NCBI GenBank assembly: GCA_002011475.1
Contig: MTNP01000037.1
Location: forward strand, 77,246-141,245
DNA: 64,000 nt
Source of the DNA: Dehalococcoides sp. JdFR-54
GTDB taxonomy: Bacteria; Chloroflexota; Dehalococcoidia; JdFR-54
Direction of reading: 5' to 3'
The notes below the pieces were generated by a model. The model was not told the origin of the DNA. It saw only the letters and a list, made by a program, of their open reading frames with translations, and did no database searches. Both the position numbers and the translations under genes were made by a program. This document shows positions 4,285 through 55,277 of the stretch, one piece after another; within the stretch, counting starts at the first letter, position 1, and each line of letters starts with the position of its first letter.

Positions 4285-5994
4285 CTAGGTTTGCGGGAGC
4301 TCACCAGCTACAAGTGGATAATCATGGGCAGCGGGCAGGTGCGGGGATAAGAAATTAAAGGTTAAGTTCGAATCCGGCCTGGGGAGCCAGGCTAACGGCG
4401 CAGAGCGCGGGTTACCCGCTTCTAATACCCGAGCGAATCGCCCTTGTTCGGGAGGTCTCCCGTAGAGGGCGATTTTTATTTCCTCCTCGGACAGCACCGC
4501 CTTGTGCAGCACCAGGCGCACCAGTTCTTTCTGCTGGTGGGGCTGGAGGCTGGCGAACACCCCGTCCATTTTCTCCAGGGCTGCCTTCACGGTATCCCTG
4601 CTGACGGCGTCCCTCTCGATCTCCCCGACAGCCACTTCCAGGGAGGCTATGCCTTCTTCCAACTCTCGGCGGCGCTTGGCCAGGCTATCCAGTTTTTCCT
4701 TCAAGAACGCGTCCCCTTCTGATCCTGCTATGGTCGCCCATCTCGACATTAAACCATCTGCCGTATTCTTCACCTCCGTCAACTCCCGCTGAAGGAGCGC
4801 CTTCTGCTGCAGAAGCTGGGGCATCTCCTGGTGGAGCTGCTCGTTAGTGGCAGTCACCAGTTCGGCCAAGATGTCTTCCCTCAGGGCGAGCTCTTTAAGC
4901 CGGCCCAGGATGAGGCCCTCAATCTCTCCCGCAGGCACCTTGAAGCGGCACTCACGGTTTTTGCACCTGTAGTAGTAATACTTTATGCCTTTGCTTCCGG
5001 TGCCGCATATACCCTCCATCTCGGCACCGCACTTCCCGCACCAGAGCAGGCCGCTGTTCAGGATATAGTTGTGTCTCACGGCCCTCGCCCTGTTGCCGTT
5101 GGAACGGTCATTGGCCGCCAGCAGCCTTTGCACCTGGTGGAATTTTTCCTCATCCACTATGGCGGGCCAGACCGCTTTCACCACCCTATATCTCTCAGCT
5201 TCGGGCAGCTTAGCCTGGTCCTCGCTCTTGCGTTTCTTGTTGACCTCTTTCTTCCCTATGTAGGCCATATTGGTGAGCATCCAGTGGACGCCGGAGTAGG
5301 TGAAGCGCTGAGGGGGATGGTAGATGCCCCGGCGGGAGGTGTATTCCTTCATGCGATAGCCCTTGCGGTTCAGCTCCTTGGCAGTTTCAAACACTGACCC
5401 GCACTTGAGATAGGTATCAAAGGCGAAATTGACGATGGCAGCTTCCCCTTCGTTGGGGATAAGATAGCCCTTCTTTGCCGGGTCAGTGTCATAGCCCAGC
5501 AGATGGCCGCCGTTCCAGAGTCCTCGTTCCGCTCGGGCCAGGGTAGCATCCCGGGTTCTCTCTGAGGTCTGCTCCCTTTCAAACTCGGCCAGAGCCATGA
5601 CTACAGTGATAAAGAGGCGCCCATGGGCCGAGGTGGTGTCGTAGTTCTGCTTGAGGCACACGAACTCCACATTGTGCTGGTTGAGGATTTCAAAGAAGTT
5701 GAGGAAGTCTTTGACCGACCTGCTGATACGGTCCAGGGCAGTACAGAGGACGGTGTTGACCTTGCCCAGGCGGATGTCCTCGAAGAGGCGGGCGAACTCC
5801 CGGCTGCGGAAGGAGTCTTTACCTGATACGGCCTTGAGCACATAGCGTTCGCTTTCTACCCATCTTTCCTCGCCCGTCATATTCTTGTATTCAATATGGG
5901 CGCGGAGGCGCTGAAGTTGAGTAGTTAAGGAGCCCTCCTCGTTCTTCGCCTGACGGTCGGTGCTCACCCGGATGACTAAGCCACATTTCTTCAC
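4285..5994 (-). CDS. large serine recombinase (phage integrase)
   Basis: 569 aa, GTG start. N-terminal resolvase domain (GLVIRVSTDRQ with catalytic Ser, ...LDRISRS), a recombinase domain, a Cys-rich zinc ribbon (CGKCGAEM...YYYYRCKNREC) and a coiled-coil. The last ~20 codons read through repeat copy 2. Confidence 0.85.
   Translation of the reverse strand: MKKCGLVIRVSTDRQAKNEEGSLTTQLQRLRAHIEYKNMTGEERWVESERYVLKAVSGKDSFRSREFARLFEDIRLGKVNTVLCTALDRISRSVKDFLNFFEILNQHNVEFVCLKQNYDTTSAHGRLFITVVMALAEFEREQTSERTRDATLARAERGLWNGGHLLGYDTDPAKKGYLIPNEGEAAIVNFAFDTYLKCGSVFETAKELNRKGYRMKEYTSRRGIYHPPQRFTYSGVHWMLTNMAYIGKKEVNKKRKSEDQAKLPEAERYRVVKAVWPAIVDEEKFHQVQRLLAANDRSNGNRARAVRHNYILNSGLLWCGKCGAEMEGICGTGSKGIKYYYYRCKNRECRFKVPAGEIEGLILGRLKELALREDILAELVTATNEQLHQEMPQLLQQKALLQRELTEVKNTADGLMSRWATIAGSEGDAFLKEKLDSLAKRRRELEEGIASLEVAVGEIERDAVSRDTVKAALEKMDGVFASLQPHQQKELVRLVLHKAVLSEEEIKIALYGRPPEQGRFARVLEAGNPRSAPLAWLPRPDSNLTFNFLSPHLPAAHDYPLVAGELPQT
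4288..4348. repeat. copy 2 of the proA 3'-end direct repeat; candidate att site at the prophage left end
   Basis: 58/60 identity to 3567-3627. Overlaps the 3' end of the serine recombinase ORF. Confidence 0.6.
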
Positions 5995-6266
5995 GATGGT
6001 GCCTCCCCTTCAGATTCGGCACCATTCATGCTCAAATCTGGCGAAGAGTCAAGTCTTTCCTGCTGGTCATCCGGGCGATCCAGGATGAGCCTGCTGGTGT
6101 CCTGTAGCAGCCTGGAGACTGCATCCTGGCGCCCCTTGTCCTGGCGAAGCAGCCCCTCTCTTTTCAGGTATTGAAAAAGCCCCTTGGCCAGGAGACGGGT
6201 AATGGCTTGCCGCCATTCGCTGCCTTCCGCTCCATCCTCGGTATAGGTTCTGTCCACCTTGGACAC
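5991..6266 (-). CDS. hypothetical small protein upstream of and overlapping the integrase start (possibly spurious)
   Basis: GTG start with AGGAGG 10 nt upstream. It contains the recurring promoter-like motif D, which weakens the coding interpretation. Confidence 0.3.
   Translation of the reverse strand: MSKVDRTYTEDGAEGSEWRQAITRLLAKGLFQYLKREGLLRQDKGRQDAVSRLLQDTSRLILDRPDDQQERLDSSPDLSMNGAESEGEAPS
6021..6060 (-). promoter_or_regulatory. conserved leftward promoter-like motif, copy D (upstream of the serine recombinase)
   Basis: caccattcatgctc...gaagagtcaagtctttcc. Related copies at 35684-35724, 37996-38037 and 55146-55179. Confidence 0.4.
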
Positions 6267-6374
6267 GCAGGAAAACCTCCTGCCCTATACCTACAGATTT
6301 CCTGGCTACTTTGTCGGGAGGTGCTTTTGAGACAGTTCTCCAGCTAGGGCGTCCACCACCTCGGATACAAAAAG

Positions 6375-6421
6375 TCCGTTAGCCTCCGCACCACCCCAGC
6401 TACAACCTCCGTTAGCCTCCG
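6375..6421. promoter_or_regulatory. two 14-bp direct repeats TCCGTTAGCCTCCG (6375-6388, 6408-6421) in the divergent integrase/sigma-factor intergenic region; candidate operators
   Basis: Exact repeats spaced 33 bp apart, seen in the sequence. Confidence 0.4.
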
Positions 6422-6467
6422 TTATTCCGCAGCTTTCAGGGCCCAGATAGCCTCTAAATAGGCCCCG

Positions 6468-6504
6468 TTCGGACACGCCGAAAAAAACCGGGAGTGTGTC
6501 CGAA
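6468..6504. promoter_or_regulatory. 9-bp inverted repeat TTCGGACAC...GTGTCCGAA flanking an A7 tract, overlapping the sigma-factor gene start
   Basis: Seen in the sequence. GGACACGC also occurs at 6261. Confidence 0.35.
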
Positions 6505-7064
6505 TGGGGTCAAGCTATGAAGGCGTATTTGAGGACTGGGAAGTAGCTATCGCCAGGAAGCTATCCAGCGAGTTTCTGGCAAGACATAGCTGGATCAAGG
6601 GAATCGAGCTGGACGACTTGGTGCAAGAGTGCCTGCTTCAGTGGTATTTAGCCAGGCATACCTATCAGCAACGCAAGGGGGCCTCACCACAGACATATAT
6701 GGCGAAGGTCGTCAGACACAGGCTGCACAACATCCTTGAGGAGCACCTTGCCGAGAAGCGGAGAGCTGACCGAATGGCTACATCGTTGGAAGCCTCGGTA
6801 GGGGAAGGCGAGGCAACGCTAAAGGAAGTCATCCCCATAGCAGGAGTAGGTGTCGAGGCTACCACCTCTTTACGCCTCGACCTGGAACAGGCGATGGAAA
6901 AGCTAACCCCGCTCCAGAGAAAGCTATGCACTCTCTTGTGGCAGGGCTATGGGGTAACGGAAATCGGCGCCATTCTAAACAGGCCCAGACCCACCATCTA
7001 CGACGAGATGAAAAGGATAAGGAGGGTCTTCGCTGACGCCGGGCTGGATGAGTACCTGGCATAG
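6504..7064 (+). CDS. sigma-70 family (ECF-like) RNA polymerase sigma factor
   Basis: 186 aa. A region-2-like segment (ELDDLVQECLLQWYLA) and a region-4 HTH (LTPLQRKLCTLLWQGYGVTEIGAILNRPRPTIYDEMKRIRR). Confidence 0.65.
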   Translation: MGSSYEGVFEDWEVAIARKLSSEFLARHSWIKGIELDDLVQECLLQWYLARHTYQQRKGASPQTYMAKVVRHRLHNILEEHLAEKRRADRMATSLEASVGEGEATLKEVIPIAGVGVEATTSLRLDLEQAMEKLTPLQRKLCTLLWQGYGVTEIGAILNRPRPTIYDEMKRIRRVFADAGLDEYLA

Positions 7065-7170
7065 CCCGACGTTTCGCAGGGATTTTCTGTAGGTATAGGC
7101 AGACGAGGCAAAGGGCAGACAAAGCCGACACTTTGGGGAGTTTCTCTGTAGGTATAGGTAGGAGCCAGGG

Positions 7171-7476
7171 ATGAAGGCTGTATGCAAGTTCACCTTCCCG
7201 AAGGACACTGCCAGGGAGCTGGTTGAGGCAGCTATCGCCTCAGCCATCTTTAACGCTGAGTGCGTCTTTGGCAAACCCAGGGTCAGGGTTAGTGGCGCTG
7301 CCTATTACCTGGCGGAGGACAGCCCCCAGTGTGTCATCGACGTAAGCACTGAGGTAGGAGAGCACATCGCCCAGGTGTTCACCGGAATCATGATTAACAC
7401 CCTGGGCGAGGAGAAGTTCCAGGTGCGCAGGATCGAGGGAGCGGTTAGCCCCGTGGCAGAGAAATCCAGGAGTTAA
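7171..7476 (+). CDS. hypothetical protein
   Basis: 101-aa ORF within the phage early region. Confidence 0.4.
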   Translation: MKAVCKFTFPKDTARELVEAAIASAIFNAECVFGKPRVRVSGAAYYLAEDSPQCVIDVSTEVGEHIAQVFTGIMINTLGEEKFQVRRIEGAVSPVAEKSRS

Positions 7477-7486
7477 GGAGGCACGG

Positions 7487-8521: not shown

Positions 8522-8535
8522 ACCAGGAGCAGGAG

Positions 8536-9006
8536 ATGGAACTGAAGCAGGCCCAGGCTTTGGCTCAAGAAATCGTAGACCAGCTCGCTCCTTACTATGA
8601 GCGGATTGAGGTTACAGGGTCGATTCGCCGCCAGAGGCCCTTCCCCAGGGACATCGATATCGTCCTCATCCCCAGGAGCCAGGGCAAGCTGGCTATGGCG
8701 CTGGAGGCCCTGGGTGAGGCCAGGCTCGGCGGCAAGAAGCTGGAGGAGCGCATCTACAAAGGCGTCCAGGTAGACCTTTACTTCGCCACCCCTGAGACCT
8801 GGGCCACCCTTCTCCTTATCAGAACGGGGAGCAAGGCCCACAACATTAAGCTCACCACCCTGGCGAAGAAACGAGGTTGGCACCTTTATGCCAGCGGCCG
8901 TGGGCTTATCAACGACAGGGGCGAAAGGATAGCTGGGGATAGCGAGGAGTCATTCTTCCAAGCGCTCGGCCTTCCTTACGCCGAACCCTGGGAGCGGGAA
9001 CGATGA
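8536..9006 (+). CDS. DNA polymerase beta-like (family X) minimal nucleotidyltransferase
   Basis: VTGSIRRQRPFPRDIDIVLIP fits the Pol-beta NTase motif hG[GS]x9-13Dh[DE]h. The C-terminus TGSKAHNIKLTTLAKKRGWHL resembles the PolX thumb. Confidence 0.55.
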   Translation: MELKQAQALAQEIVDQLAPYYERIEVTGSIRRQRPFPRDIDIVLIPRSQGKLAMALEALGEARLGGKKLEERIYKGVQVDLYFATPETWATLLLIRTGSKAHNIKLTTLAKKRGWHLYASGRGLINDRGERIAGDSEESFFQALGLPYAEPWERER

Positions 9007-26038: not shown

Positions 26039-27174
26039 TAAGGGTTACTTTCCTGGGCACCAGAGCCGAGGTGGAAATACCTCAGGAGGGCCACGACGAT
26101 CCCCAGTGCCAGGAAGCCCGTCGCCTGGGTAATGACTACTACCATAAGCTGCATTCCTCCCTGCTCATTGAGGCAGAGGGCAGCAGGCTCATGCTCGATG
26201 CCGGGGAGGGGCACGAGGAGATGGTGGCCAGGGTAAAGCCCGACGCCATCCTGGTCACCCATGCCCATCCCGACCACCTCTCCAGAAGGCTGGAAGCCCT
26301 TGAGCCTGCCATCCCCGTCTACATGAGCGAGGATACCGCCGAGGTTATCAAACTGCCCCACGAGCAGGTATTTCCTGAAGACAAGCCCTTTGAGGTGGCG
26401 GGGTTCAAGGTGGTGGCCCATCCCGTTGTCCACTCCCTGGTGGCCCCAGCTGTTTGCTTTAAGGTGTCAAAGGGGGACTTCACCCTGGTCTATGCCCCGG
26501 ATGTGGTCTCCATACCCGACCGCCAGCACTTCCTCAAGGGCGTTGACCTCTACATCGGCGATGGCTCCTCCCTTACCAGGGACATCATCCGCCGCAGGGA
26601 CGATAAGCTCATCGGGCATGCCAGTATGCTCAGGCAGCTTCGCTGGGCAGAGGGGATGAAGCAGGTTCTCTTCACCCATGTGGGGCACCTGAAGAAGACC
26701 GAGGCCGATGTCAACCAGGCCCTGCGCATCGCCTCCGATGGGAGGGCCCGCCTGGCCCGGGACGGGATAAGCCTGGAGTTTGAGAGCCTCCAGGTCACCA
26801 TCGAGACCATTGCCCCGGTTCTGGCTCCAGCTATCCCCACCAGAGCTGAGCCTCAAGACCTTATCCAGGATGCAGAGAGCTACGATGCCTCTGCCCCCAG
26901 GGATGACCAACTCAGGGACGACTGGCGCATCGTCTGCGGCTGGTATGCCACCCTGAAGAGCGGCGGCGACATCAAGTTCGATGAGGCCACCATCGTGGCT
27001 CTGGGGCAGAAAATCCTCAAGGAGCTGCTGCGCCGCAAGCGGAAAGACCCCCTCAGTCTTTACCGCCCACCCCGGGGAGATGAAGGAGTATCCCAGGGAG
27101 CTCTACGAGCGCATCACCAGAGAGTGGGACCCAGAGGACAAAGCCTTCCTGGAGACCGAGCCGGAGGAGCTTGA
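26035..27174 (+). CDS. metallo-beta-lactamase-fold hydrolase (candidate nuclease)
   Basis: LVTHAHPDHL (HxHxDH) and further MBL motifs. The C-terminal ~30 codons overlap the next gene and look low-complexity, so the true stop is uncertain. Confidence 0.55.
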   Translation: MIRVTFLGTRAEVEIPQEGHDDPQCQEARRLGNDYYHKLHSSLLIEAEGSRLMLDAGEGHEEMVARVKPDAILVTHAHPDHLSRRLEALEPAIPVYMSEDTAEVIKLPHEQVFPEDKPFEVAGFKVVAHPVVHSLVAPAVCFKVSKGDFTLVYAPDVVSIPDRQHFLKGVDLYIGDGSSLTRDIIRRRDDKLIGHASMLRQLRWAEGMKQVLFTHVGHLKKTEADVNQALRIASDGRARLARDGISLEFESLQVTIETIAPVLAPAIPTRAEPQDLIQDAESYDASAPRDDQLRDDWRIVCGWYATLKSGGDIKFDEATIVALGQKILKELLRRKRKDPLSLYRPPRGDEGVSQGALRAHHQRVGPRGQSLPGDRAGGA

Positions 27175-31042: not shown

Positions 31043-33529
31043 CTACGATACTGACACTGACGCTTTCCAAATGCTTGTTGGAATTGTTACCCTTTCTTTC
31101 TTACCTACTGCAGCAGGATCCTTCACTAAATAGATATTGGGGTTCTCTGGTATTTCAGACACCACACAGAGGTAGAAGGAGTTCCTGTATTTGTCCGCCG
31201 TCTCTGTCTCGTTGCGATCTAGCTCAACATCTCGATCGTGGCTTAGTCCCTTGACTTCTATACGCATAGTTTCACCGCTGTGAGTCTCCGCTTCTATATC
31301 GTAACCGAAGTTCCTTTTATCCACTGGTTTGACGTTTCTATAGGCCGCTTTTAGTTTTTCTATAGCATAATTCATGGCAAATTCTTCCACGCCATTATCA
31401 GGGTCATCCTTGATTCCTCCGTTTTTGAGGAATTGCCGCCATGCTCTTAACTGGTCGTCATTCGTAACGCCAGTAAGATAGTCCACGCTCAGAAAATTGA
31501 GGCCAGATACATATTGCTGACGAGTTTCCCAGTCTCTCTCAGGTTTGAACTCCTTGGGGAAAAACACTTCTCTCGCTGCTCGCACCTCGCCTTGCTTTGT
31601 AAGAACCCAGAATTCCAAGCCTCTCCCGACTTCCTCTCCAAGGATTCGCTGGCATTGAATGGTATATAGTAGCAGGTCGCGTGGCGTAGGTTTGGGTGCA
31701 GTGGTTAAAATCCTGGGTAACAAAGCCTCTTTACAGACTGTGTTCGCGTCTAAGACCGGCACACCGGTCAATCCTGTGAGGAAGCCTCTAATATTTTTCC
31801 GTTCTTCTTCGCTCTTGGCTCTCCCCAGAATATCCGGGTGTAATATTGACCTAGACTTTTGCAGGGTTTCGGTTACATCCTTCAGAATGGGATCAGAGGG
31901 CTGGAAGTCGGGGAGCCATACATTCCTGCCTTCAAGAAGCTCTCCCTCTGCTGTCAACACGATCCTTGAGCTCCAGTAACCCTCCTGGTACCAATAGCCT
32001 TTTCTGCTATAGCTGCCACGCGGGTGCGTCTGGAGCCATAAATATAAGCTCCTGAACCACTCAGCCGCAGCAGAGCTTTTACATTTTTCCTCGAGGAATG
32101 CTTCGTTACTCAGTAGCCCCAGCCGATCTACTTTCTTGAAAGGTGACGAATCTGGTTCTACTACATCGGGAGCTATCACCTCCAAATCAGGTTGCCCACC
32201 CATAGCTGCCGCTATTTGGTCTTTGCTCAAGATACCCATACGTACAAGGTCATCAATGGCTTTCTGATCCTCGTTAACTTTTACTGCTTGTTTAGGCTTC
32301 GTCCAGCCTCCCTCTGCGGTGGGCACACACGTATCTTCTTCCAGATAGGTTTCTACTGGCTCAATCAGTTTAGGCCCGAATAGCTTGTCATGGGCTTCAA
32401 GGCCCTTCGACTTTGTGAACTCAAAGGCAGGCAGAAACTGGTACTTCCATGTCTTGTGATTCTTAAAACAGTTTATGGCCTCCTTGCATAGGTCAGCCAC
32501 CTGCTCTACTAGCCAGTGATTCCATTTCGCTTCATAGTTGATGGCCTCTCGTCCTGGCTGAACAAGAAAATCAGCTTGTATCGGAAACTTAGCGCCACTT
32601 CTTGCCTCACCCAACGGCAAAAAGGAGTATACGCCTCCATACATTGCCCCAGCCTGTAAAGGAGCGAGATTGCCTTCATTGTCAAGTGCAAAAGCTATGG
32701 CTATTTCTCTGCGAGTTACATTGGCTCTATATTCCTGTGTAAGCCTGTCTGCCTTCACCCAATCCGGCACTGAGCAAACTCGCCGGAAGAACCTGAACCT
32801 TTGCTCCTGCCCATTATGCCTGAGAGTTGTGATACCGTCCTCGCTTTCTCCGATGTTCTCCAGAGTCCAGGTTCGTCCGTATACCTCATCTACAATCTCT
32901 ATTCGCTTTAACCAGCGAAGGAATAGATATAGCTCGGTGCTCAGCCTTGTTACTTCCTGAAGCAGGGCTGAATAATAGGTCTCCTCCCTAAAAGGGATGA
33001 TGAACGTTGTCCTCTCGTGTTCGACGGCTTCCGAGGGTTGGTCAATCCAGATGGGTAAGACGTGCCATGGTGTGCGACTGGGGTCCTCCCACTCTTTATG
33101 GTTTCTGTCGAATTTGAATTGGAAGCCACCAGAATATACCTCAGGGCAATCAGTGACTTTAAAAACGGATTTGAATCCTATGCCCAGATATCCCAATGTG
33201 CCTTTTTCCGGCTTCTTTGATGACCTGATGCCACAGAGCGCCTTTACATCGTCTTGGTTAAAGGGACGGCCATTATGTATCACCTTTGCTCTATGCTGGT
33301 TAATTCTTACTTCGAACACACCGAGAGTCTCTAAACCCAAACCAGCATCCTCGGCATTCTGAAGTAGCTCAAGGACAAACCCAGAACTTCTCGTAAATAT
33401 GACTTGGGCGATCAATTTTAGAGCGTTAATATAATCGTCCCATATCCTTGTCCCTTTAGATGCTTTAATCTCCTCCTGGATAGTGTCTATAATTCTCTTT
33501 GCCTCGCGAGGATTCAAACCTACCGCCAT
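31043..33529 (-). CDS. GHKL-type (sacsin/MORC-like) ATPase with a C-terminal DUF3883/PD-(D/E)xK-like domain; low-GC moron
   Basis: N-terminal VLELLQNAEDAG (HATPase_c motif). C-terminal ...YDIEAETHSGETMRIEVKGL (D...E.K). Opposite strand to the flanking phage genes. AT-rich. Confidence 0.55.
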   Translation of the reverse strand: MAVGLNPREAKRIIDTIQEEIKASKGTRIWDDYINALKLIAQVIFTRSSGFVLELLQNAEDAGLGLETLGVFEVRINQHRAKVIHNGRPFNQDDVKALCGIRSSKKPEKGTLGYLGIGFKSVFKVTDCPEVYSGGFQFKFDRNHKEWEDPSRTPWHVLPIWIDQPSEAVEHERTTFIIPFREETYYSALLQEVTRLSTELYLFLRWLKRIEIVDEVYGRTWTLENIGESEDGITTLRHNGQEQRFRFFRRVCSVPDWVKADRLTQEYRANVTRREIAIAFALDNEGNLAPLQAGAMYGGVYSFLPLGEARSGAKFPIQADFLVQPGREAINYEAKWNHWLVEQVADLCKEAINCFKNHKTWKYQFLPAFEFTKSKGLEAHDKLFGPKLIEPVETYLEEDTCVPTAEGGWTKPKQAVKVNEDQKAIDDLVRMGILSKDQIAAAMGGQPDLEVIAPDVVEPDSSPFKKVDRLGLLSNEAFLEEKCKSSAAAEWFRSLYLWLQTHPRGSYSRKGYWYQEGYWSSRIVLTAEGELLEGRNVWLPDFQPSDPILKDVTETLQKSRSILHPDILGRAKSEEERKNIRGFLTGLTGVPVLDANTVCKEALLPRILTTAPKPTPRDLLLYTIQCQRILGEEVGRGLEFWVLTKQGEVRAAREVFFPKEFKPERDWETRQQYVSGLNFLSVDYLTGVTNDDQLRAWRQFLKNGGIKDDPDNGVEEFAMNYAIEKLKAAYRNVKPVDKRNFGYDIEAETHSGETMRIEVKGLSHDRDVELDRNETETADKYRNSFYLCVVSEIPENPNIYLVKDPAAVGKKERVTIPTSIWKASVSVS

Positions 33530-33549
33530 CGTTCCCCTCGTTCTGGATT

Positions 33550-33864
33550 CTAAAGGTACCCGAGTTCACGTAAAGCTCGAGCCACGCCATCCATGTCGGG
33601 CATTACCCAGTAAGCTCTCCTGCCACCCCTTACCGTTTCTCCTTCCTTCCTCAAAATTCCATATTTCTCAAGCATTCTCAAGCCAGGAAACCATCCGATC
33701 CTGTCCACAACCCAAGCACCAGCAAAGCTTCTACCTTCAAGCCTCTTAGCTTCGTCATAGCAACCTCTTACCACTTTAAGCCAGTCTACGTCAAAAACAG
33801 GGGGACCACCCTTTGCTTTGAAGGGGTGGTCTTGTGCTAATTTCATTACGCCCTGATAGCTCAT
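33550..33864 (-). CDS. hypothetical protein, co-directional with and upstream of the GHKL protein
   Basis: 104-aa ORF, 20-nt gap to the GHKL gene. Confidence 0.4.
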   Translation of the reverse strand: MSYQGVMKLAQDHPFKAKGGPPVFDVDWLKVVRGCYDEAKRLEGRSFAGAWVVDRIGWFPGLRMLEKYGILRKEGETVRGGRRAYWVMPDMDGVARALRELGYL

Positions 33865-34050
33865 GTTTGCCTTTAGACAGTGAGATTTGCTTCTGTCAGT
33901 GTAAGCAGCAAGAGCCTGTCCCAGTTCCTATGTCACTTCAGCCAGGTGCCACGTAACCAAGGGGTCGTGCGAGTCTATCTTTCTGACATCCTGGCTCGGT
34001 CAAGGCCATGAGCGCCTGAGTCGCCGCAGAGCCCCTGACGAATTCGACCT

Positions 34051-34308
34051 TTATACCGCCACATACTCACGGATGTCCACCTGGACGCCAGCGCGGGCAG
34101 CTTCTTCTGCGGTCTGAAGGAGCCGCTCCGTGATTTCCTCCTCTACATACTCCTCCCCGCAGTTCGGGCAGACCCTCGCTGGCACACCCTTAATCACCAG
34201 GGTGGCGCCATCCCGCTCCAGGGTCACTGTAGCCTTGCCGGGACGGGTCTCCGCTTGCCTACAAATAACGCACTTCATTGTCTCCTCCTTCTGAACCCGG
34301 GCTCCCAT
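34051..34308 (-). CDS. YgiT/MqsA-type zinc-finger antitoxin
   Basis: MKCVICRQAETRPGKATVTLERDGATLVIKGVPARVCPNCGEEY matches the YgiT zinc-ribbon pattern. Overlaps the upstream toxin gene. Confidence 0.55.
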   Translation of the reverse strand: MGARVQKEETMKCVICRQAETRPGKATVTLERDGATLVIKGVPARVCPNCGEEYVEEEITERLLQTAEEAARAGVQVDIREYVAV

Positions 34309-34559
34309 TGGGTCAGGTCAGGTTCATATACAGTGATTACAATAGTTTCCTGACCCTCCATGTTCTCCGCAGCTACCACATGGATAGGGCGTGATCCACG
34401 CCATCCGAGCACCAAGTGGCTCGGATAGGGAGTGTCGTTGGGATAATCCTCAATCACCTCTCCTGTCGATAGCACGTGGCGGACATCATCCACACTGATT
34501 CGGCGCTGAAACATACGCTGGATGGCGTGTACACGGAAAACCAGTCGGTCAAAGGTCAC
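34275..34559 (-). CDS. DUF4258-family toxin
   Basis: HAIQRMFQRRISVDDVRHVLSTGEVIEDYPNDTPYPSHLVLGWRGSRPIHVVAA...IVITVYEPD matches DUF4258. It is the toxin-first partner of the zinc-finger antitoxin. Confidence 0.55.
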   Translation of the reverse strand: MTFDRLVFRVHAIQRMFQRRISVDDVRHVLSTGEVIEDYPNDTPYPSHLVLGWRGSRPIHVVAAENMEGQETIVITVYEPDLTQWEPGFRRRRQ

Positions 34560-34809
34560 ACCCTTGCTCCCCCGAGGAGGTCGATCCGGCGATCACCGGC
34601 AAGGGATGGCCCAGTTTGAAGCCGACCAGAATCCAGTCTTCCAGGGTAGAGCGCAGTTCATCCTGGCACTCCCGCAGGGTGGTGCCGAAAGCCACCACGT
34701 CCTTGCACTGAGGAATTCGCCCTGAAAAGGTGCTGTCCACCAGCTTATCGTAGACTGCCTGGGACGAAGCCTGCTCTACATAGTCGGTAAGGACCAATTT
34801 CACACCCAT
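34549..34809 (-). CDS. HicB-like (UPF0150) antitoxin-fold protein; no HicA partner recognised
   Basis: ...IPQCKDVVAFGTTLRECQDELRSTLEDWIL resembles the HicB N-terminal domain. Confidence 0.35.
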   Translation of the reverse strand: MGVKLVLTDYVEQASSQAVYDKLVDSTFSGRIPQCKDVVAFGTTLRECQDELRSTLEDWILVGFKLGHPLPVIAGSTSSGEQGCDL

Positions 34810-35683: not shown

Positions 35684-35724
35684 GCTTCACACACATCCAT
35701 CACTCAGCTTCGCCAGGAAGTCAA
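35684..35724 (-). promoter_or_regulatory. conserved leftward promoter-like motif, copy A (gcttcacacacatccatcactc + ggaagtcaa)
   Basis: 22-nt block identical to 37996-38017. On the minus strand it reads TTGACTTCC...GAGTGATGGATGTGTG. Confidence 0.45.
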
Positions 35725-36487
35725 TAGCCTTCGAGGAGACTTGGTGAGGTCTCCGCTCGGCTAGCTCAAACCCTGCCAGCCCTTTGAGGCAGTTGTCCCT
35801 GGTGGCCTGGTAGCCGCAGCAGGGCTTGAGCGCCCTTACCTCAACATCCTCGCCCAGGACCGACCTGAGCAGGTCGGCCTGGGAGCCGAACCAGAGGGCG
35901 CCCCGCTCCATGTCCTTCGCCACCACCAGGGGCCGGTGGTTACGGCAGAGCCAGATGGCGGGCAGGCGCAGGTCGGCGAAGGCTATGGCGTAATCCCCCC
36001 TGAGCCTGGCCAGGGCTTTCCTGATCCCCCTGGGTCGCACCCTGCCGTTGCTATGGCGGCGCAGCAGCCGGAAGATCACCTCCGAGTCCACCTCCGCCGT
36101 AGCCCCCACCTCTGCTCTAAGCTGCCGATAGTTGTAGATGACGCCGTTGTGGACGCCGAGGATGGGCCCGGCCAGCAGGGGATGGTTGTTGCGGTTGTCG
36201 GCGGGGTCGCCATGAGTCGCCCACCGGGTGTGGCCCACCACGCCGACGGTGTCGTTGTCCACGGCGTCCAGCAGCTGCCAGAATTGGGGCTGCGCCACCA
36301 GCCTGGAGGCGGGGCCAGGCTGCTTGAGGTATTTCGCCACGCCTTGCTTGAGCACGAAGGCCCCCGCTGCATCCCTGCCCCTGATCTCGGTGGCTGCCAG
36401 CAGGGTGGCGAAGTCCTCCCGGATGCCCTCCAGCTCCTGCTCGCTCCTGTTTCGCCTGTCAAGAACGAATCCTGCTATTCCGCACAT
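35687..36487 (-). CDS. class-II (Ntn) glutamine amidotransferase domain protein
   Basis: Begins MCGIAGF (Cys2 nucleophile). ...GHTRWATHG..., NHPL. Start set at the ATG giving MCGIAG. Confidence 0.6.
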   Translation of the reverse strand: MCGIAGFVLDRRNRSEQELEGIREDFATLLAATEIRGRDAAGAFVLKQGVAKYLKQPGPASRLVAQPQFWQLLDAVDNDTVGVVGHTRWATHGDPADNRNNHPLLAGPILGVHNGVIYNYRQLRAEVGATAEVDSEVIFRLLRRHSNGRVRPRGIRKALARLRGDYAIAFADLRLPAIWLCRNHRPLVVAKDMERGALWFGSQADLLRSVLGEDVEVRALKPCCGYQATRDNCLKGLAGFELAERRPHQVSSKAIDFLAKLSDGCV

Positions 36488-36897
36488 GGTGCGCCTCCAT
36501 CGTAAAAGAGATATTTGCCATCCTGGACCTCCCGGGTGCTGAACACCCTGGAGCACATCCTGACCGAAGGCGTGTTGCTCTGCGCCACCAGCGACCTGAG
36601 CTGGCATCCCCTGGCGGCGGCCAGCTCCTTCTTGGCTTTCAGCAGGGCGGTGCCGATGCCCCGGTTCCTGAAGTCCCGCCGCACCACGGTGATGGAGTAT
36701 TTGCTATGCCCATTGGGGCAGGCCGTAAAGCTCAGGCCCACCAGCTCACCGTCGATGCGGTATTCCAGCAGGATGTCGCCCTCCGAGCCTCCCGCCTTGT
36801 AGTAGTCGAAGCTTTTCTGCCTTATGTGGCGGTCGCCGTTGGCCCGGATGAAGCCCAGGTGCTCTGGGCAGACCTGGCTAACCCTGGCAATCTCCAT
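36475..36897 (-). CDS. GNAT-family N-acetyltransferase
   Basis: VVRRDFRNRGIGTALL (motif A). Start at MEIARV. 13-nt overlap with the amidotransferase gene. Confidence 0.55.
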   Translation of the reverse strand: MEIARVSQVCPEHLGFIRANGDRHIRQKSFDYYKAGGSEGDILLEYRIDGELVGLSFTACPNGHSKYSITVVRRDFRNRGIGTALLKAKKELAAARGCQLRSLVAQSNTPSVRMCSRVFSTREVQDGKYLFYDGGAPCAE

Positions 36898-37150
36898 CCT
36901 CGTCCTCCCTGCCCAGGTAGCGGATGAGCTCCGCCCGCTCCAGGCTCGCCAGGAATCGCTCAGCAGAAACGGTATCCAGGGGCTTCCCGTAGACCATCTC
37001 CGTCCGCTCGGCCACCCGACCCTTGTATTCCCCCAGGCTGAGGTGTCTCTCAAACAGGGCCGAGCGCCTCATGGCCCTGACTACCTCAGTGGGGCTATCG
37101 CCACTGAAGCGGTCTCCAGTGAAGGTCATCTCGATAACTATCCTTGCCAT
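36878..37150 (-). CDS. hypothetical small protein within the amidoligase cassette
   Basis: 90 aa from MARIVIEM. Overlaps its neighbours. Confidence 0.4.
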   Translation of the reverse strand: MARIVIEMTFTGDRFSGDSPTEVVRAMRRSALFERHLSLGEYKGRVAERTEMVYGKPLDTVSAERFLASLERAELIRYLGREDEDGDCQG

Positions 37151-37152
37151 CT

Positions 37153-37977
37153 CTACACTCCCTTCCACACCAGCTTGTGGTGCTGAAATAGCCTCCGCTC
37201 CTCGGCGGTGAGCCCCAGGCCCCGGGCCAGCCTGTAGAGCGGGTTTCGGCGGGTCTCCATGGGCTTTATCCCCCGCAGCACCCTGGCCTCGCTGAGGCTC
37301 TTGAGCACCAGCCTCAGGCACAGGGTGACCCAGGCCTTGACATCGGCGGAGCTGAGGGTGCCGTCGAAGTAGCGGAACTCTATGGTGCCCCGGTAGTTGA
37401 AGCTGTGCAGGTTGAGGCCCCGGTAGCGGCTGGGGTGATACTTATGGCTGAATATGCGAGGTAGCTCCTGCCGGGGCACGCCATACCACCGCTCCCAGAA
37501 GCGCTTGAAGGTCTTGGCCTTCATCAGCCCATCGTAGTCGGTCTCCCGGCTGCGGTGGACCTCCTCGATGGGCTTGCAGTAGCGGTAGTGGTTGCCGTTC
37601 CTGCCCCGGTGCTCGGCGTCTCCTCCTCGGGCTATCTGGTAAATCCAGGGCTCGTAGGCCCTGGTGTTCTGCACCAGCCTCTTGATGCCCTCCAGGTCGA
37701 AGCCGCTACCGTCCACGTGGATGTGAATGCTGCACCGCTCGCTCACCCTGGCCCCGTGGCGCTTGAGCAGGCTGAGCACCCGCTCTATCTGGCCGAAGTC
37801 GCCCAGGGTCAATGGGGGCGATACAATCTCGCAGCCGTCGTGCAGGCTGCCGTCGCTGGCTACCTTCCAGCCTCCTGGCAGGGCAAGCTCCCGCCGGGCT
37901 CGCTCGGTGGAGATGCCTTCCACCTCTATCTCCACCCCGAACCGGCGGCTGTCTATGGTGGCACTTCGGTTTGTCAT
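37153..37977 (-). CDS. putative amidoligase (PF12224-like, glutamine-synthetase-like fold)
   Basis: GVEIEVEG...WKVASDGSL...CEIVSPPL...CSIHIHVD matches the amidoligase family signature. Confidence 0.6.
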   Translation of the reverse strand: MTNRSATIDSRRFGVEIEVEGISTERARRELALPGGWKVASDGSLHDGCEIVSPPLTLGDFGQIERVLSLLKRHGARVSERCSIHIHVDGSGFDLEGIKRLVQNTRAYEPWIYQIARGGDAEHRGRNGNHYRYCKPIEEVHRSRETDYDGLMKAKTFKRFWERWYGVPRQELPRIFSHKYHPSRYRGLNLHSFNYRGTIEFRYFDGTLSSADVKAWVTLCLRLVLKSLSEARVLRGIKPMETRRNPLYRLARGLGLTAEERRLFQHHKLVWKGV

Positions 37978-37995
37978 CTCCTTCCTCCGAATCTG

Positions 37996-38037
37996 GCTTC
38001 ACACACATCCATCACTCTGAATCTGGAGGAAGTCAAG
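37996..38037 (-). promoter_or_regulatory. conserved leftward promoter-like motif, copy B (upstream of the amidoligase)
   Basis: gcttcacacacatccatcactc-10nt-ggaagtcaag, followed upstream by gtctttcc as in copy D. Confidence 0.45.
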
Positions 38038-38168
38038 TCTTTCCAGAGCGAATCTGCGGAGGCTCCAGAAAATCCGTTCTGCCTGTTGTGCGTCCGAAAA
38101 GTATTGCTAATGTCACACTTCTCTTGACAAGCGCAGGAGATTTGATATGCTTAGAGTGGGGGTGTGAC

Positions 38169-38702
38169 ATGAAACAAAAAGCGATTTACTTTAGGGCTTC
38201 ACCCGAGCTTGCTTCCCGGGTCAAAGAGCAAGCTGCTAAGAAAGGTGTTTCAGCCAGCGCCGCTGTAGCGGAGTTGGTAGAGGTAGGACTCGAATTTGTG
38301 GACAAGCAGGGAACTATCGAGGACCTTAAGAAGTCCTTGGAGCAAGAGAGGCACGCTCGGAGCATTGCTGAGGGAGAAGTTCAGAGGCTACGGAGGGAGA
38401 AGCAGCAAATACAGGAAGAGACTGGACGGAATTTGCGTATGCTACAAGATTCGTATAATGGGCTGCTTGGACATCTACGCGTGACCGACTTGGCTGTCTG
38501 CCCAAGCTGTCGCCAGATTCTTAGTGCCTACGACGTTATTATCCAAAGAAGGTGCTCCCAATGCAGCATAGCTGTTAGCTTGGGGTCAGTGGCAGATCCC
38601 CAAAGACCTGGCCCGCTGATTAGGGACTTGTTGGCAGTTGTCGGCGGAATAGCAGTATTTGCCGGTATTGTGAACGCCTTGTCTAACAGGGATTCGGCCT
38701 AG
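38169..38702 (+). CDS. ribbon-helix-helix (Arc/MetJ-like) N-terminal domain protein with Cys-rich and hydrophobic C-terminal regions
   Basis: MKQKAIYFRASPELASRVKEQAAKKGVSASAAVAELVEVGL. Candidate promoter TTGACA(38114)-16nt-TATGCT upstream. Low GC. Confidence 0.45.
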   Translation: MKQKAIYFRASPELASRVKEQAAKKGVSASAAVAELVEVGLEFVDKQGTIEDLKKSLEQERHARSIAEGEVQRLRREKQQIQEETGRNLRMLQDSYNGLLGHLRVTDLAVCPSCRQILSAYDVIIQRRCSQCSIAVSLGSVADPQRPGPLIRDLLAVVGGIAVFAGIVNALSNRDSA

Positions 38703-45312: not shown

Positions 45313-45321
45313 GGAGGATGT

Positions 45322-46837: not shown

Positions 46838-46846
46838 GGAGGAGCT

Positions 46847-47333: not shown

Positions 47334-47426
47334 AATGCCAGGCCGTGAAGAGGAGCTGAAGGTAAGGATCACCGGCGAGGACCAGCTCTCGCCCGTCCTG
47401 GACAGGGTCAGAGGAGGGCGGAGAGC

Positions 47427-53656: not shown

Positions 53657-53659
53657 GCC

Positions 53660-53875
53660 GTGTCTGACAGAGAGCAGGAACAGAAGCCGATGGGCATCTT
53701 CACCATCGCCTTTGACCCACAGCAGGGCCGCTTCTCCTTCGTGGGCAATATGCCGGTGGAGCAGGCTCTCGCTATCCTTCAGCAGGCCCTGGCACAGCAG
53801 CAGCGGGAACGAATGAGGCAGGAAATCCTTAAGGAGCTGGAGAGCAAGGCCAACCAGTCAGAGGCGCCGCCTTAG
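53660..53875 (+). CDS. hypothetical small protein
   Basis: 71-aa ORF. Confidence 0.35.
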   Translation: MSDREQEQKPMGIFTIAFDPQQGRFSFVGNMPVEQALAILQQALAQQQRERMRQEILKELESKANQSEAPP

Positions 53876-54183
53876 CGGTGATGTGTCAGGAGCTTTCCCC
53901 CGAACTTAAGCAGCCGTACCATGCCCTCTGCCAGCAGAACGATGGCCAGCCCGGAAATAAGGAGCATAGCTATGAGCATGGCTGCGACTTGGACAATGAA
54001 GCCCGCTTCTCCAAGGAACGTGCTCCTTGGACTGGGTATGACGCTGAGGATCAGATAGACGAGACCAAGGATGGGTCCTCTCCAAAGGAGAAGGCAAAGA
54101 ATAGCTACGATTCCGATAGCCATAATAGCTGCAAGGGTTGCCCTCTCCGTTGGATCGAACTCCAGGCCGCGCATCGCTATCAC
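53872..54183 (-). CDS. small multi-pass membrane protein (holin-like candidate)
   Basis: Three hydrophobic segments. No endolysin recognised nearby. Confidence 0.3.
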   Translation of the reverse strand: MIAMRGLEFDPTERATLAAIMAIGIVAILCLLLWRGPILGLVYLILSVIPSPRSTFLGEAGFIVQVAAMLIAMLLISGLAIVLLAEGMVRLLKFGGKLLTHHR

Positions 54184-54226
54184 TTCTAAAGATAATAGCC
54201 TCTTTGCAACGAGAATGCCACCTGCT

Positions 54227-55120
54227 CTACCCCCTCAGCAGGCTGTCGGCGGGGGAGTATTTCCGATGCTGAGCCTGGACGTCGGTGCTCCAGAGGTTCA
54301 CATACAGCCTGACGGTTTGCAGGCTGCTATGTCCCAGTATCTGCTGCAAGCTGAAGGGGTCGCCTCCGTTCAGCAGGTACTTCCTGGCGAAAGTATGGCG
54401 GAAGGTATGGGGAGAGCATCGCTTGCCGTTGACTCCGGCGAGCCTGGCGCATTCCTCAATGATGTATTCCAGCCTGCGCACCCCCAGGGGCTTCCCGTTG
54501 CGGCCAGAGAATAGCCAGCCCGAGCGGCGGTCACTCAGGTATCTCCGTAGTTGCCTGGTGGCCTCTCTGCCGATGGGCACCATGCGCTCCCTACCCCCCT
54601 TGCCCAAGACTTTGGCTGCAGCTGTGCCATTCTCAAAGTGGATGCGCTCTACCTCCAGCCTGGCAAGCTCCGACACCCTGAGCCCGCTGTCCAGGAGCAG
54701 CAGGAAAATGGCCTTGTCACGCTGGGGGTTCCGGGTGCTGCGGGTGGCCTTCAGGAGCAGCCTTACCTCTTCGTCCGAGAAAGGCTCAGGCAGCTTGCGG
54801 GATGGCCTGGAAAGTCTGACAGCAGCGAAGGGGTCATTATGGACCTTGCCTTCGGCGACCAGCCACTTCAAGAAGGCTTTGACTACGACGGCGTTCTGCC
54901 TGGGCGTTCCGTTGCCACCTCCATTTGCCTGCAGGTGGGTAATGTAGGCCCTGAGGTCGGTAGCGGATAGAGTTCCTGGCTCCGTCTTTCCGTTGTCACC
55001 GCACCAGTCGGCGAAGCGCCTGAGCCTGGCGCCATAGACCTTCAGAGTGCGCTCTGCCTTTCCCTCAACGGCCAGCGCCGCCAAATATTCCCCCACGACC
55101 CTGTGGATAGCTGTCATCAT
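54227..55120 (-). CDS. tyrosine-type site-specific recombinase/integrase (XerC/D-like)
   Basis: N-terminal SAM-like domain. Catalytic region R...HTFRHTFA...LGHSSLQTVRLY. Start set at MMTAIHRV (GGAGG upstream). Confidence 0.8.
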   Translation of the reverse strand: MMTAIHRVVGEYLAALAVEGKAERTLKVYGARLRRFADWCGDNGKTEPGTLSATDLRAYITHLQANGGGNGTPRQNAVVVKAFLKWLVAEGKVHNDPFAAVRLSRPSRKLPEPFSDEEVRLLLKATRSTRNPQRDKAIFLLLLDSGLRVSELARLEVERIHFENGTAAAKVLGKGGRERMVPIGREATRQLRRYLSDRRSGWLFSGRNGKPLGVRRLEYIIEECARLAGVNGKRCSPHTFRHTFARKYLLNGGDPFSLQQILGHSSLQTVRLYVNLWSTDVQAQHRKYSPADSLLRG

Positions 55121-55145
55121 GCCCTCCTGTGCTTCTTGCCTTGCC

Positions 55146-55179
55146 CACATTCATCGCTCTCCTCCCGCAGGAAGTCAAG
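55146..55179 (-). promoter_or_regulatory. conserved leftward promoter-like motif, copy C (upstream of the tyrosine integrase)
   Basis: cacattcatcgctc...caggaagtcaag. Confidence 0.4.
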
Positions 55180-55277
55180 CTGCAGGGACAAAAGGGGATT
55201 GACTTCTCCAGTCTTGACATGCTACTATTGCGGCAGCGAAAGGCTCAAATGTTCGGACATATTAGGGAGTATAAGCC

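Follow-up and report, generated by a model that had tools for sequence, protein, structure and literature searches.

The window, by which we mean the whole 64-kb stretch of DNA analyzed here, carries on its minus strand genes for a large serine recombinase and a tyrosine integrase, together with a cargo operon encoding an Amidoligase_2 protein, a GNAT protein, and a class-II GATase (Table 1). A further window protein, encoded at 6504-7064, carries Sigma70_r2/r4_2 and is an ECF-like sigma factor. The initial annotation had described four copies of a promoter-like element before leftward transcription units. All four are present on the minus strand, each consisting of TTGACT, a 13-nt spacer, a GAG...ATG..TG block, a Shine-Dalgarno (SD) sequence, and a start codon. 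The 22-mer GAGTGATGGATGTGTGTGAAGC is indeed identical in the 35.7- and 38.0-kb copies.

We searched both strands of the 64 kb with a covariance model that uses sequence only and was trained on 28 copies from other organisms, none from the window. Its four best matches are exactly these four copies: three strong (38003-38038, E = 1.1e-8; 35691-35724, E = 1.5e-7; 55146-55179, E = 1.6e-7) and one marginal (6023-6054, E = 0.088, with a 1-nt gap). The next match has an E-value of only 2.3, and the model finds none in the window on the plus strand, nor any copy before a rightward operon. The pattern TTGACT-N(10-20)-GAKYRATGRATGTG occurs three times in the window (35692-35724, 38004-38036, and 55146-55178), against 0.00 expected from 100 dinucleotide shuffles of the same sequence. 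The repeated element is confirmed.

Table 1. Coordinates of the element copies and associated features in the window
Feature	Position	Strand	Remarks
Large serine recombinase gene	4285..5994	-	Downstream of the marginal 6.0-kb copy
Marginal copy	6020..6052	-	TTGACT 6052-6047; GAGC 6033-6030; ATGAATGGTG 6029-6020
Copy upstream of the 85-aa gene (ATG 35664)	35692..35724	-	TTGACT 35724-35719; block 35705-35692
Amidoligase_2 - GNAT - class-II GATase cargo operon	35687..37977	-	Lies between the two 22-mer copies
Amidoligase SD and start	37975..37988	-	SD GGAGGAAG 37988-37981; ATG 37977
Copy upstream of the amidoligase operon	38004..38036	-	TTGACT 38036-38031; spacer 38030-38018; block GAGTGATGGATGTG 38017-38004
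Canonical divergent promoter, TTGACA-16-TATGCT (with TG)	38124..38151	+	Serves the rightward operon starting at 38169
Tyrosine integrase gene behind the 55.1-kb copy	54227..55120	-	Integrase homologues in other loci also bear the motif
Copy upstream of the tyrosine integrase (ATG 55120)	55146..55178	-	TTGACT 55178-55173; block GAGCGATGAATGTG 55159-55146
Canonical divergent promoter, TTGACT-18-TACTAT (with TG)	55199..55228	+	Serves the excisionase-type HTH ORF 55278-55496

The copies differ in their surroundings. The 38.0-kb copy stands in a 190-nt divergent gap in which a promoter scan finds no canonical leftward sigma-70 promoter; in this gap and in that at 55.1 kb, the scan places canonical promoters only on the strand opposite the copies. 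No obvious co-directional transcription, against which insulation might be needed, lies upstream of these two copies. The 35.7-kb copy sits within the 3' end of the GATase ORF (stop TGA 35689-35687), and the 6.0-kb copy lies within ORF 5991-6266, 25 nt upstream of the serine recombinase GTG (5994). The latter copy reads TTGACT-N13-GAGC-ATGAATGGTG and fits the model only with a 1-nt gap; it has GGAAAGACTTGACT and CCAGATT in common with the 38.0-kb copy. The ORF around it had been suspected of being spurious. Against this, its GC content by codon position (0.65/0.45/0.63) is of the coding type, like that of its neighbors, and its stop codon overlaps the recombinase GTG (GTGA). It has no Pfam or PHROG match and is best regarded as a putative gene.

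Conserved form and genomic distribution

Hundreds of contigs that belong to phages, prophages, or Mu-like transposons carry the motif; they come from Clostridia, Melainabacteria, Acidobacteria, Chloroflexi, Actinobacteria, and Armatimonadota. Conservation of the motif is confined to mobile elements yet spans phyla, at least six of them, and as far as we found the element is undescribed in the literature. Behind it lie genes for tyrosine integrases, DUF2924/serine-recombinase operons, genes for Mu-type transposases and amidoligases, and other cargo. In the window, as initially annotated, the element stands in front of the two recombinase genes and of the cargo operons; its association with integrases, serine recombinases, and amidoligases recurs in unrelated elements. 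Homologues of the serine recombinase, for instance, lie behind the motif and DUF2924 in L055, L096, L148, L150, L160, L166, and L173.

Across these elements the general form is cTTGnnn-N13-GAGYGAT-NN-ATGTG. The order of parts given in the initial annotation stands, while its consensus needs revision to this form. The distance from the hexamer to GAG is 13 nt in 130 of 138 matches (12-14 permitted), so that GAT is 17 bp away and AT 18 bp. With TTG alone kept constant, the first hexamer varies in the manner of a -35 (TTGACT, TTGCTT, TTGCCT, TTGATG, TTGCAT, TTGCAA, and TTGATA, among others). A C precedes it in 49 of 79 copies, and A is found in 31-41 of 79 at three positions 5-7 nt before it. The block is asymmetric, without dyad symmetry, and is shared between families that each have their own spacer and flanks. 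At the position four nucleotides past the block, T is depleted (9/79) and purines reach 48/79, the only sign of a possible transcription start there.

The element is oriented with respect to genes. Among the 79 nonredundant copies, an SD sequence and the beginning of an ORF with 50 aa or more occur within 150 nt downstream in 56, compared with 11 in the opposite direction, and the block lies a median of 36 nt before the start. At least five independent families (L001, L009, L182, L217, and L254) have the -35 only 28-71 nt from the start of a divergent gene, and one Heliusvirales copy has a terminator ~60 nt upstream. In 56 of 67 copies, the first ORF on the upstream side runs in the same direction, and it often overlaps the -35 or ends within 40 nt of it; an intercistronic RNA element would be suited equally well by this arrangement.

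A probable promoter with a noncanonical -10 block

The promoter-like nature proposed in the initial annotation is supported by sequence anatomy, spacing, orientation, and contexts. We put at roughly 60% the probability that the element is a compact portable promoter, probably read by the host primary sigma, with a fold-back between spacer and SD sequence in about one-third of families. Several properties expected of a sigma-70 promoter are found: a TTGACA-like -35 (TTGACT in all four window copies), a constant spacing within the 16-18 bp range, and a sense position where a promoter is needed, both before genes generally and in the divergent gaps. A TATAAT-like -10 is absent, and a consensus scan calls none of the copies. 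The block fails the canonical -10 test because an A at -11 never coincides with a T at -7 in any register.

In the cassette as we picture it, a short A-tract and the -35 hexamer (cTTGACT in the window, TTGnnn generally) would be followed by a 17-bp spacer made up of 13 free bases and GAGY. An atypical 7-nt -10-like element, GAT-NN-AT, would come next, equivalent to the ATAAT of TATAAT lengthened by one base between its A and final T; GTG would follow. Transcription would start a few bases past the block, so that the 5' UTR measures some 25-45 nt and includes the SD sequence. The reader is most likely the host primary-sigma holoenzyme, to judge from the sigma-70-type -35 and from hosts in many phyla. 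Temperate phages and Mu-like transposons would place the cassette before genes that need expression independent of neighboring operons, such as those for integrase, DUF2924/serine recombinase, transposase, amidoligase, or other cargo.

The 14 nearly invariant bases exceed by far what a primary sigma needs of a -10 element, which hints at a further reader. The block, far longer than a normal -10 and matching TATAAT in no register, might be read by a dedicated factor, either an alternative or element-encoded sigma (e.g., the ECF-like protein of the window) or an activator over the -10. Apart from the window's own Sigma70_r2/r4_2 protein, a family comprising L007, L155, and L172 has the motif before a gene whose product, judged by eye, is like sigma region 2; a 97-aa N-terminal fragment of that product has no Pfam match. 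However, the window sigma has no homologue in any other motif-bearing locus and no protein family is common to all motif families in the flanks, which cover 8-14 kb at most and are so short that absence from them is weak evidence. Furthermore, the rightward operons behind the sigma gene have no copy in front of them, and in Gastranaerophilales Mu-like elements the motif has only a transposase, an ATPase, and a few small genes nearby. We consider a dedicated factor unlikely. Dependence on the window's ECF-like sigma in particular is not supported, there being neither a homologue in the other loci nor a plus-strand copy in the window.

The initial annotation had suggested a common regulator, for example a repressor-controlled family of lysogenic promoters; read in this way, the element would be the operator of a repressor encoded by this phage. 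All four copies in this one element are on leftward units, and the 38.0- and 6.0-kb copies share an extra GGAAAGAC as well as CCAGATT, a possible local operator. Yet the block lacks a dyad and is identical across phyla without a common candidate repressor (the six or more phyla share no regulator gene in the examined flanks), and family specificity lies in the spacer and the flanking sequence rather than in the block. A common regulator specific to this phage thus finds no support, and we regard this model as highly improbable.

Some other function at the DNA level, superimposed on a promoter, may also preserve the block, which would then be either a recognition site for the DNA methyltransferases carried by these phages (a methylation-sensitive -10, as in IS10 pIN) or a crossover point for cassette exchange. 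Genes for ParB-type or other DNA methyltransferases lie within a few kilobases of the motif in 34 loci, and in Heliusvirales phages methyltransferase genes stand directly upstream of motif-bearing amidoligase genes. As for exchange, the two 22-mer copies of the window flank one cargo operon as direct repeats, and in Gastranaerophilales the upstream flanks switch abruptly just before the -35. Nevertheless, we see no methyltransferase in the Mu-like elements and, by eye, no evident known methylation motif in the block, and recombination alone cannot hold 12 of 14 bases across phyla while the spacer drifts. The chance that either function explains the block is very small.

Complementarity between spacer and SD sequence

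Duplex energies between the spacer and the 5' UTR have a mean z of -0.96 over 76 families (Stouffer -8.3). Pairing is significant (p < 0.05) in 25 of these, compared with seven and four of 76 in two control segments, and the paired 3' segment is mostly located 9-29 nt ahead of the start codon. Pairing is not a universal feature, ~2/3 of families having no significant complementarity. All three strong window copies are among the 25.

At 38.0 kb, the SD sequence GGAGGAAG is perfectly complementary to CTTCCTCC (38032-38025), within the -35 and spacer. At 35.7 kb, ACTTCCT (35721-35715) is complementary to the SD AGGAGGT (35677-35671), and at 55.1 kb CTTCCTG (55174-55168) to CAGGAGG (55129-55123). 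The recombinase SD is covered at 6.0 kb by an interrupted hairpin, CTCTTC-GC-CAGATT (6048-6035)/AATCTG-AA-GGGGAG (6016-6003). On folding, the long forms of the 6.0-, 35.7-, and 38.0-kb copies pair the SD (fold z-scores -2.65 at 6.0 kb and -2.44 at 35.7 kb), and of the short forms that at 38.0 kb is essentially unstructured, with its SD open, and that at 35.7 kb weakly folded. The SD of the 55.1-kb copy is unpaired in the full fold. Outside the window, three paralogous copies of one phage (L272) have compensatory arms: CCTGTGCTT/AAGCACAGG, CTTGTGTTT/AAACACAGG, and CCTTTCAG/CTGAAAGG.

In about one-third of families, the window copies included, the 13 free spacer bases would carry an anti-SD (CTTCC...) able to pair with the SD of the gene behind them. 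Since this arm lies upstream of the cassette's own start as we infer it, transcripts coming in from outside should fold back on themselves and mask the SD; a transcript started by the cassette would be translatable. The complementarity suggests that read-through transcripts are translationally silent.

The same complementarity, with its compensatory changes, could belong to a cis-regulatory RNA located in a 5' UTR or between two cistrons. In such a model a hairpin between spacer and pre-SD region hides the SD, and the block, in the loop, is bound by a protein, RNA, or ribosome that opens the hairpin or keeps it shut, or the hairpin is opened by translation of an upstream ORF. Most copies are closely behind a co-directional gene or overlap its 3' end; in the 35.7- and 6.0-kb copies, which are within upstream ORFs, ribosomes would cross the 5' arm. 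However, pairing is significant in only a minority of families, and recombinant copies (L030 and L038) are unpaired. The 13-nt spacing is constant though stems vary in length and position, and the TTGnnn hexamer and upstream A-tract have no role in an RNA model. Tight divergent contexts leave no space for an upstream promoter, and in Gastranaerophilales complementary boxes also occur upstream of the -35, in either orientation, resembling operator half-sites. Rfam 15 gives no gathering-score match in the window or 13 loci, except two tRNAs elsewhere, and around the 38.0-kb copy only chance-level matches at E up to 10. An RNA element seems rather improbable to us.

Significance

If the element is a promoter, it is a sequence tag for independently expressed genes in uncultured prophages and transposons, among them integrases, recombinases, transposases, and cargo such as amidoligase systems, and would help to predict prophage genes expressed apart from the lytic program. 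Among its carriers is Ca. Heliusvirales, a very widespread order of gut phages. The invariant noncanonical -10 poses a question of promoter recognition: a -10 element 1 nt longer, or a further reader. The anti-SD in the spacer, if true, would be a very compact way to tie translation to the origin of the transcript, applicable to the design of synthetic insulation.

More tentatively, mobile elements across phyla may share a private promoter grammar, with a canonical -35 and a 7-nt -10 (GAT-NN-AT) between invariant GAGY and GTG, read in an unrecognized mode of the primary holoenzyme or by a new conserved factor. Together with the spacer anti-SD, by which translation would depend on the transcript's origin, this might form a new class of transcription/translation insulator for integrase, transposase, and cargo genes, a possibility to which we give less weight than to the portable promoter itself.

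Comparison with known systems

Sigma-70 promoters, including those with an extended -10 or the Gram-positive "-16 region," resemble the cassette in the TTGACA-like -35, the upstream A-tract, the 17 bp between the -35 and an A/T-containing element, a G where the TG motif has its G, and a sense orientation tens of nucleotides before an SD and start codon. The cassette differs from them in having no TATAAT-like hexamer, its A and final T being five rather than four positions apart (GAT-NN-AT), in its invariant flanking GAGY and GTG, and in being restricted to mobile elements while crossing phyla. The CII-dependent integrase promoters of lambda, of the PI/PRE type, are likewise a dedicated class for int and other lysogeny functions within one phage. 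In contrast to these, the cassette has no activator repeats of the TTGC-N6-TTGC type, has a good -35, and is conserved far beyond one phage group.

In IS10 and IS50, fold-back protects transposase genes from outside transcription. IS200 combines a terminator with an SD-sequestering stem (PMC4513863). In all three, as proposed for the cassette, a mobile element hides the SD of a recombinase gene in a stem. One arm of the cassette is upstream of its own inferred start, so only foreign read-through RNA would be silenced. Unlike in these insertion sequences, the 5' arm lies inside the 13-bp promoter spacer, the pairing is predicted in only ~1/3 of families, and cargo genes have it too.

Morons of lambdoid and other temperate phages are promoter-gene-terminator units, and to our knowledge their promoters have no one common sequence. 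The cassette-bearing units are similarly autonomous between or against phage operons, with an amidoligase/GNAT/GATase cargo in the window, but here one cassette recurs before nonhomologous genes in unrelated elements. Putative mobile promoters, too, are highly similar upstream sequences before nonhomologous genes, sometimes across distant bacteria, in groups defined by overall upstream-sequence similarity (PMC3575422). In the element described here, by contrast, only two short blocks at a set spacing are conserved and the rest diverges, which indicates functional constraint rather than recent copying.

Four copies of a conserved element in the window

On the minus strand, each of the four stretches picked out in the initial annotation carries TTGACT, a 13-nt spacer, a GAGYGATGRATGTG-type block, a Shine-Dalgarno (SD) sequence, and a start codon, and the 22-mer GAGTGATGGATGTGTGTGAAGC is indeed common to the copies at 35.7 and 38.0 kb. 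The pattern TTGACT-N(10-20)-GAKYRATGRATGTG occurs three times in the window, whereas none is expected in shuffled sequence. As an independent test, we searched the window, unfiltered, with a sequence-only profile built from 28 copies of other organisms. Its four best matches on either strand are the same four copies (E = 1.1e-8, 1.5e-7, 1.6e-7, and 0.088), and the next-best match has E = 2.3. The 6.0-kb copy fits only with a 1-nt gap (TTGACT-N13-GAGC-ATGAATGGTG) and is therefore a diverged or marginal member. An exact-protein look-up found the same amidoligase operon on a near-identical 3-kb JGI metagenome contig; in the 240 nt upstream of the operon (L278 480-720 vs. window 37950-38190), the two differ by a single SNP, in which the base that opens the conserved block changes from G to T.

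Features of the window around the four copies, with the complementary spacer and SD segments of each copy
Feature	Position	Strand or direction	Remarks
Host genes	window start to ~4.2 kb
Large serine recombinase	4285-5994	-	91-aa ORF upstream, its stop overlapping the recombinase GTG
91-aa ORF	5991-6266		no family match; stop overlaps recombinase start (GTGA)
6.0-kb copy	6023-6054	-	CTCTTC-GC-CAGATT with AATCTG-AA-GGGGAG
Replication and methyltransferase genes	6.5 to 31 kb	rightward	first gene ECF-like sigma
1317-aa multi-domain protein	26981-30934		two methyltransferase-type PHROG matches and a ligase-like region; end of rightward replication block
Cargo block	31-38 kb	leftward	NOV_C/SACS, small toxin-antitoxin-like genes, 184-aa gene, 85-aa gene, GATase-GNAT-Amidoligase_2 operon
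Low-GC island	31043-34809	leftward	GC 0.48-0.53; 828-aa NOV_C and SACS-domain protein; MqsA-like, DUF4258, and UPF0150 small genes
35.7-kb copy	35692-35724	-	ACTTCCT with AGGAGGT
38.0-kb copy	38004-38036	-	CTTCCTCC with GGAGGAAG
TCTTGACA(A/T)G	38110-38130	+	supplies the -35 of the rightward promoter
Canonical sigma-70 promoter	38124-38151	+	TTGACA-16-TATGCT; 38.0-kb divergent gap
Head, tape-measure, and tail genes	38.2 to 53.7 kb	rightward
Tyrosine integrase	54227-55120	-	divergent from excisionase-type HTH ORF
55.1-kb copy	55146-55178	-	CTTCCTG with CAGGAGG
Canonical sigma-70 promoter	55199-55228	+	TTGACT-18-TACTAT; 55.1-kb divergent gap
TCTTGACA(A/T)G	55205-55220	+	within the spacer of the rightward promoter
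117-aa ORF	55245-55598	-	overlaps excisionase-type HTH ORF
Excisionase-type HTH ORF	55278-55496	+	own canonical promoter; restriction-modification genes after

In the two divergent gaps, a promoter scan found canonical sigma-70 promoters on the plus strand only and none leftward; the 38.0- and 55.1-kb copies thus occupy sites that call for a leftward promoter but have no canonical one. Both gaps also contain TCTTGACA(A/T)G, which may be a shared local operator. The 117-aa ORF is probably spurious, since the HTH ORF that it overlaps has a promoter of its own. The remaining two copies lie inside final codons: those of the GATase gene (35.7 kb) and of the 91-aa ORF (6.0 kb). The suspicion that this latter ORF is spurious is not borne out, its GC pattern being coding-like. 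In other elements, a DUF2924 gene occupies the same position before the serine recombinase. The profile search placed no copy in the low-GC island, which looks like separately acquired defence or toxin-antitoxin cargo.

Distribution among mobile elements

Exact-pattern scans returned 16 IMG/VR contigs, more than 118 genome contigs, and 40 metagenome contigs (GGAT variant alone); being pattern-based, they give a lower bound for the taxonomic range. Judged by record titles among the matches listed, the motif occurs in Gastranaerophilales/Melainabacteria, Christensenellales, Oscillospiraceae, Caproicibacter and other Bacillota, Dehalococcoidia, Terriglobia, Bryobacteraceae, Thermoleophilia, and Armatimonadota, with several motif-bearing contigs from these taxa 57-292 kb long. 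It was not seen in Proteobacteria or Bacteroidota among the matches listed from these scans. The few matches in Thalassarchaea and Sulfurimonas fall within coding regions and look like chance.

The genes downstream from the motif are varied. Amidoligase_2 follows the motif in 18 loci besides the window, but the motif is missing from distant amidoligase loci in other phages, and we reject a tie to amidoligase as such. Other copies precede DUF2924 genes followed by serine recombinases homologous to that of the window, large serine recombinases directly, tyrosine integrases homologous to that of the window (for which peptide patterns found no relatives in IMG/VR), DUF3489-type proteins (judged by eye), several small unknown proteins, and, in Gastranaerophilales, a multi-copy Mu-type transposase (rve and Mu-transpos_C). 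The Gastranaerophilales loci (L017-L134; e.g., L094 1733-7859) pair this Mu/Tn552-type transposase (~585 aa) with a MuB/TniB-like ATPase; a copy stands before each transposase gene, with another variant of the motif, GAGCGATTAATGTG, 1-3.5 kb upstream.

Many motif loci are phage in nature, with genes for HNH, small and large terminase, portal, and ParB-type methyltransferase proteins. Their annotated relatives are Ca. Heliusvirales gut phages, in which a run of several genes between the methyltransferase and terS has a copy ~50 nt upstream of each gene. Six such phages (L272-L277; PV036453, PV036415, PV036459, PV036439, PV036458, and PV036426) have small cargo genes arrayed between their methyltransferase and terminase genes; these comprise amidoligase, gamma-glutamyl cyclotransferase, and unknowns. 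Several of these genes have their own copy, extended after the block by a conserved ACTACCAAAAA. In one viral contig (L244 2231-3489; IMGVR_UViG_3300036856_000065), three tandem copies within 1.3 kb each precede a small gene, and all three have their -35 hexamer, TTGCCT, between the arms of an 8-bp inverted repeat, CCGGGCGC/GCGCCCGG; this repeat may represent a terminator-like hairpin joined to the promoter. We found no description of the motif in the literature, by sequence strings or by topic; in the main paper on Heliusvirales phylogeny (PMC11283538), there is no mention of a promoter or of a motif.

The element is real and more general than the window phage. The initial annotation had proposed a common regulator, such as a repressor, for the four leftward units; an operator specific to this phage agrees poorly with the asymmetry of the block and with its occurrence in elements that share no regulator in their flanks. 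Dependence on the ECF-like sigma of the window is not supported either: The other motif-bearing loci have no homologue of it, and the rightward operons of the window have no copy upstream.

Anatomy of the element

With 12-14 nt allowed between the hexamer and GAG, 130 of 138 matches have a gap of 13 nt. When the search pattern fixes only TTG, the hexamer varies (TTGACT, TTGCTT, TTGCCT, TTGATG, TTGCAT, TTGCAA, TTGATA, and others), and the two central bases of the block, when freed, are GA, GG, TA, GT, AT, CA, TC, or CG. Relaxing GAGY in the viral scan gave mostly chance-looking matches. From these scans we derive the consensus c-TTGnnn-N13-GAGYGAT-NN-ATGTG.

Across 79 non-redundant copies, C directly precedes TTG in 49, A is enriched 5-7 nt upstream of the hexamer (31-41 copies), and T is depleted 4 nt past the block (nine copies). 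In 56 copies, the 150 nt downstream contain an SD and the start of an ORF at least 50 aa long, compared with 11 in the opposite direction; the median distance to the ORF start is 36 nt. Translation from the ATG within the block was considered, but the resulting ORF is in frame with the downstream gene in seven of ~19 families, not clearly above expectation.

Promoter or RNA element

Several features point to a promoter. The first block degenerates in the manner expected of a -35 hexamer, with an A-tract where a proximal UP subsite would lie. The spacer is rigid in length but free in sequence, and conservation ends where the block ends. In five loci (L001, L009, L182, L217, and L254) only 28-71 nt separate the -35 from a divergent start codon, often that of terS, which leaves no room for another promoter, and one Heliusvirales copy has a terminator ~60 nt upstream. 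An intercistronic RNA element has a modest probability: In 56 of 67 copies, the first ORF on the upstream side is nearby and runs in the same direction, by naive ORF calling (as in all our statistics on neighboring ORFs), and this keeps such a reading alive. Rfam gave no family match at gathering or permissive thresholds, a further point in favor of a promoter.

As a sigma-70 promoter, the element would have a good -35 but a non-canonical -10 region: No register of the block has both A-11 and T-7, the block reading GAT-NN-A at 17 bp and AT-NN-AT at 18 bp. We read the block as a putative 7-nt -10, GAT-NN-AT, which would be the ATAAT of TATAAT lengthened by one base between the pair captured by sigma region 2 and would be flanked by a partial "-16 region" (GAGY) and GTG. 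Fourteen nearly fixed bases exceed what the primary sigma should require, so another reader, not the primary sigma alone, may recognize the block. Other known signals fail on inspection: box C/k-turn (GUGAUGA), the hammerhead core, an extended SD complement, the DnaA box, the Fur box, the right arm of CIRCE (GAGTG), the ECF -35 (xxACTT), and the phiEco32 gp36 promoter. Likewise, a CsrA site (GGAUGU) exists only in the G variant, and sigma-H (RNNGAAT) and sigma-28 (CGAT) both mismatch at the -35.

Overall, we class the element as a portable cassette of promoter type that belongs to temperate mobile elements. Its -10 region is non-canonical yet strikingly invariant, and the spacer often encodes an anti-SD as well. 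Its start site, its holoenzyme, and the effect of the fold-back we infer from sequence.

Complementarity between spacer and SD

In all window copies, the pyrimidines that follow TTGA can pair with the SD. Folds that begin at the -35 bury the SD in the copies at 6.0, 35.7, and 38.0 kb (z = -2.65, -2.44, and -0.96, respectively) and not in that at 55.1 kb; in folds that begin where the block ends, the leader at 38.0 kb has essentially no structure and that at 35.7 kb folds only weakly. We compared duplex energies of spacer and 5′ UTR with composition-preserving shuffles in 76 non-redundant copies with an identifiable gene. The z-scores average -0.96 (Stouffer -8.3), and 25 copies reach P < 0.05, compared with seven for the segment upstream of the -35 and four for a coding segment. 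These shuffle-based scores and control segments replace a cognate vs. non-cognate permutation test, dropped because matched GC content confounds it. The paired 3′ segment mostly lies 9-29 nt ahead of the start codon, a smaller set agrees, and three paralogous copies of one phage have compensatory arms.

Such pairing is absent in about two-thirds of families and in recombinant copies. In Gastranaerophilales, complementary GTCTCA/TGAGAC boxes stand in the spacer and at the start codon; the same boxes are found upstream of the -35 too and may face either way, as operator half-sites do. We conclude that the pairing is an optional add-on, not the defining structure of the element. At 35.7 and 6.0 kb, where the copies are embedded in upstream ORFs, the stem could serve instead for translational coupling with the upstream gene.

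The IS10 and IS50 transposase genes are protected from transcription that enters from outside. The geometry here would be the same: The 3′ arm covers the SD, and the 5′ arm precedes the probable start site. IS200 has related devices (PMC4513863).
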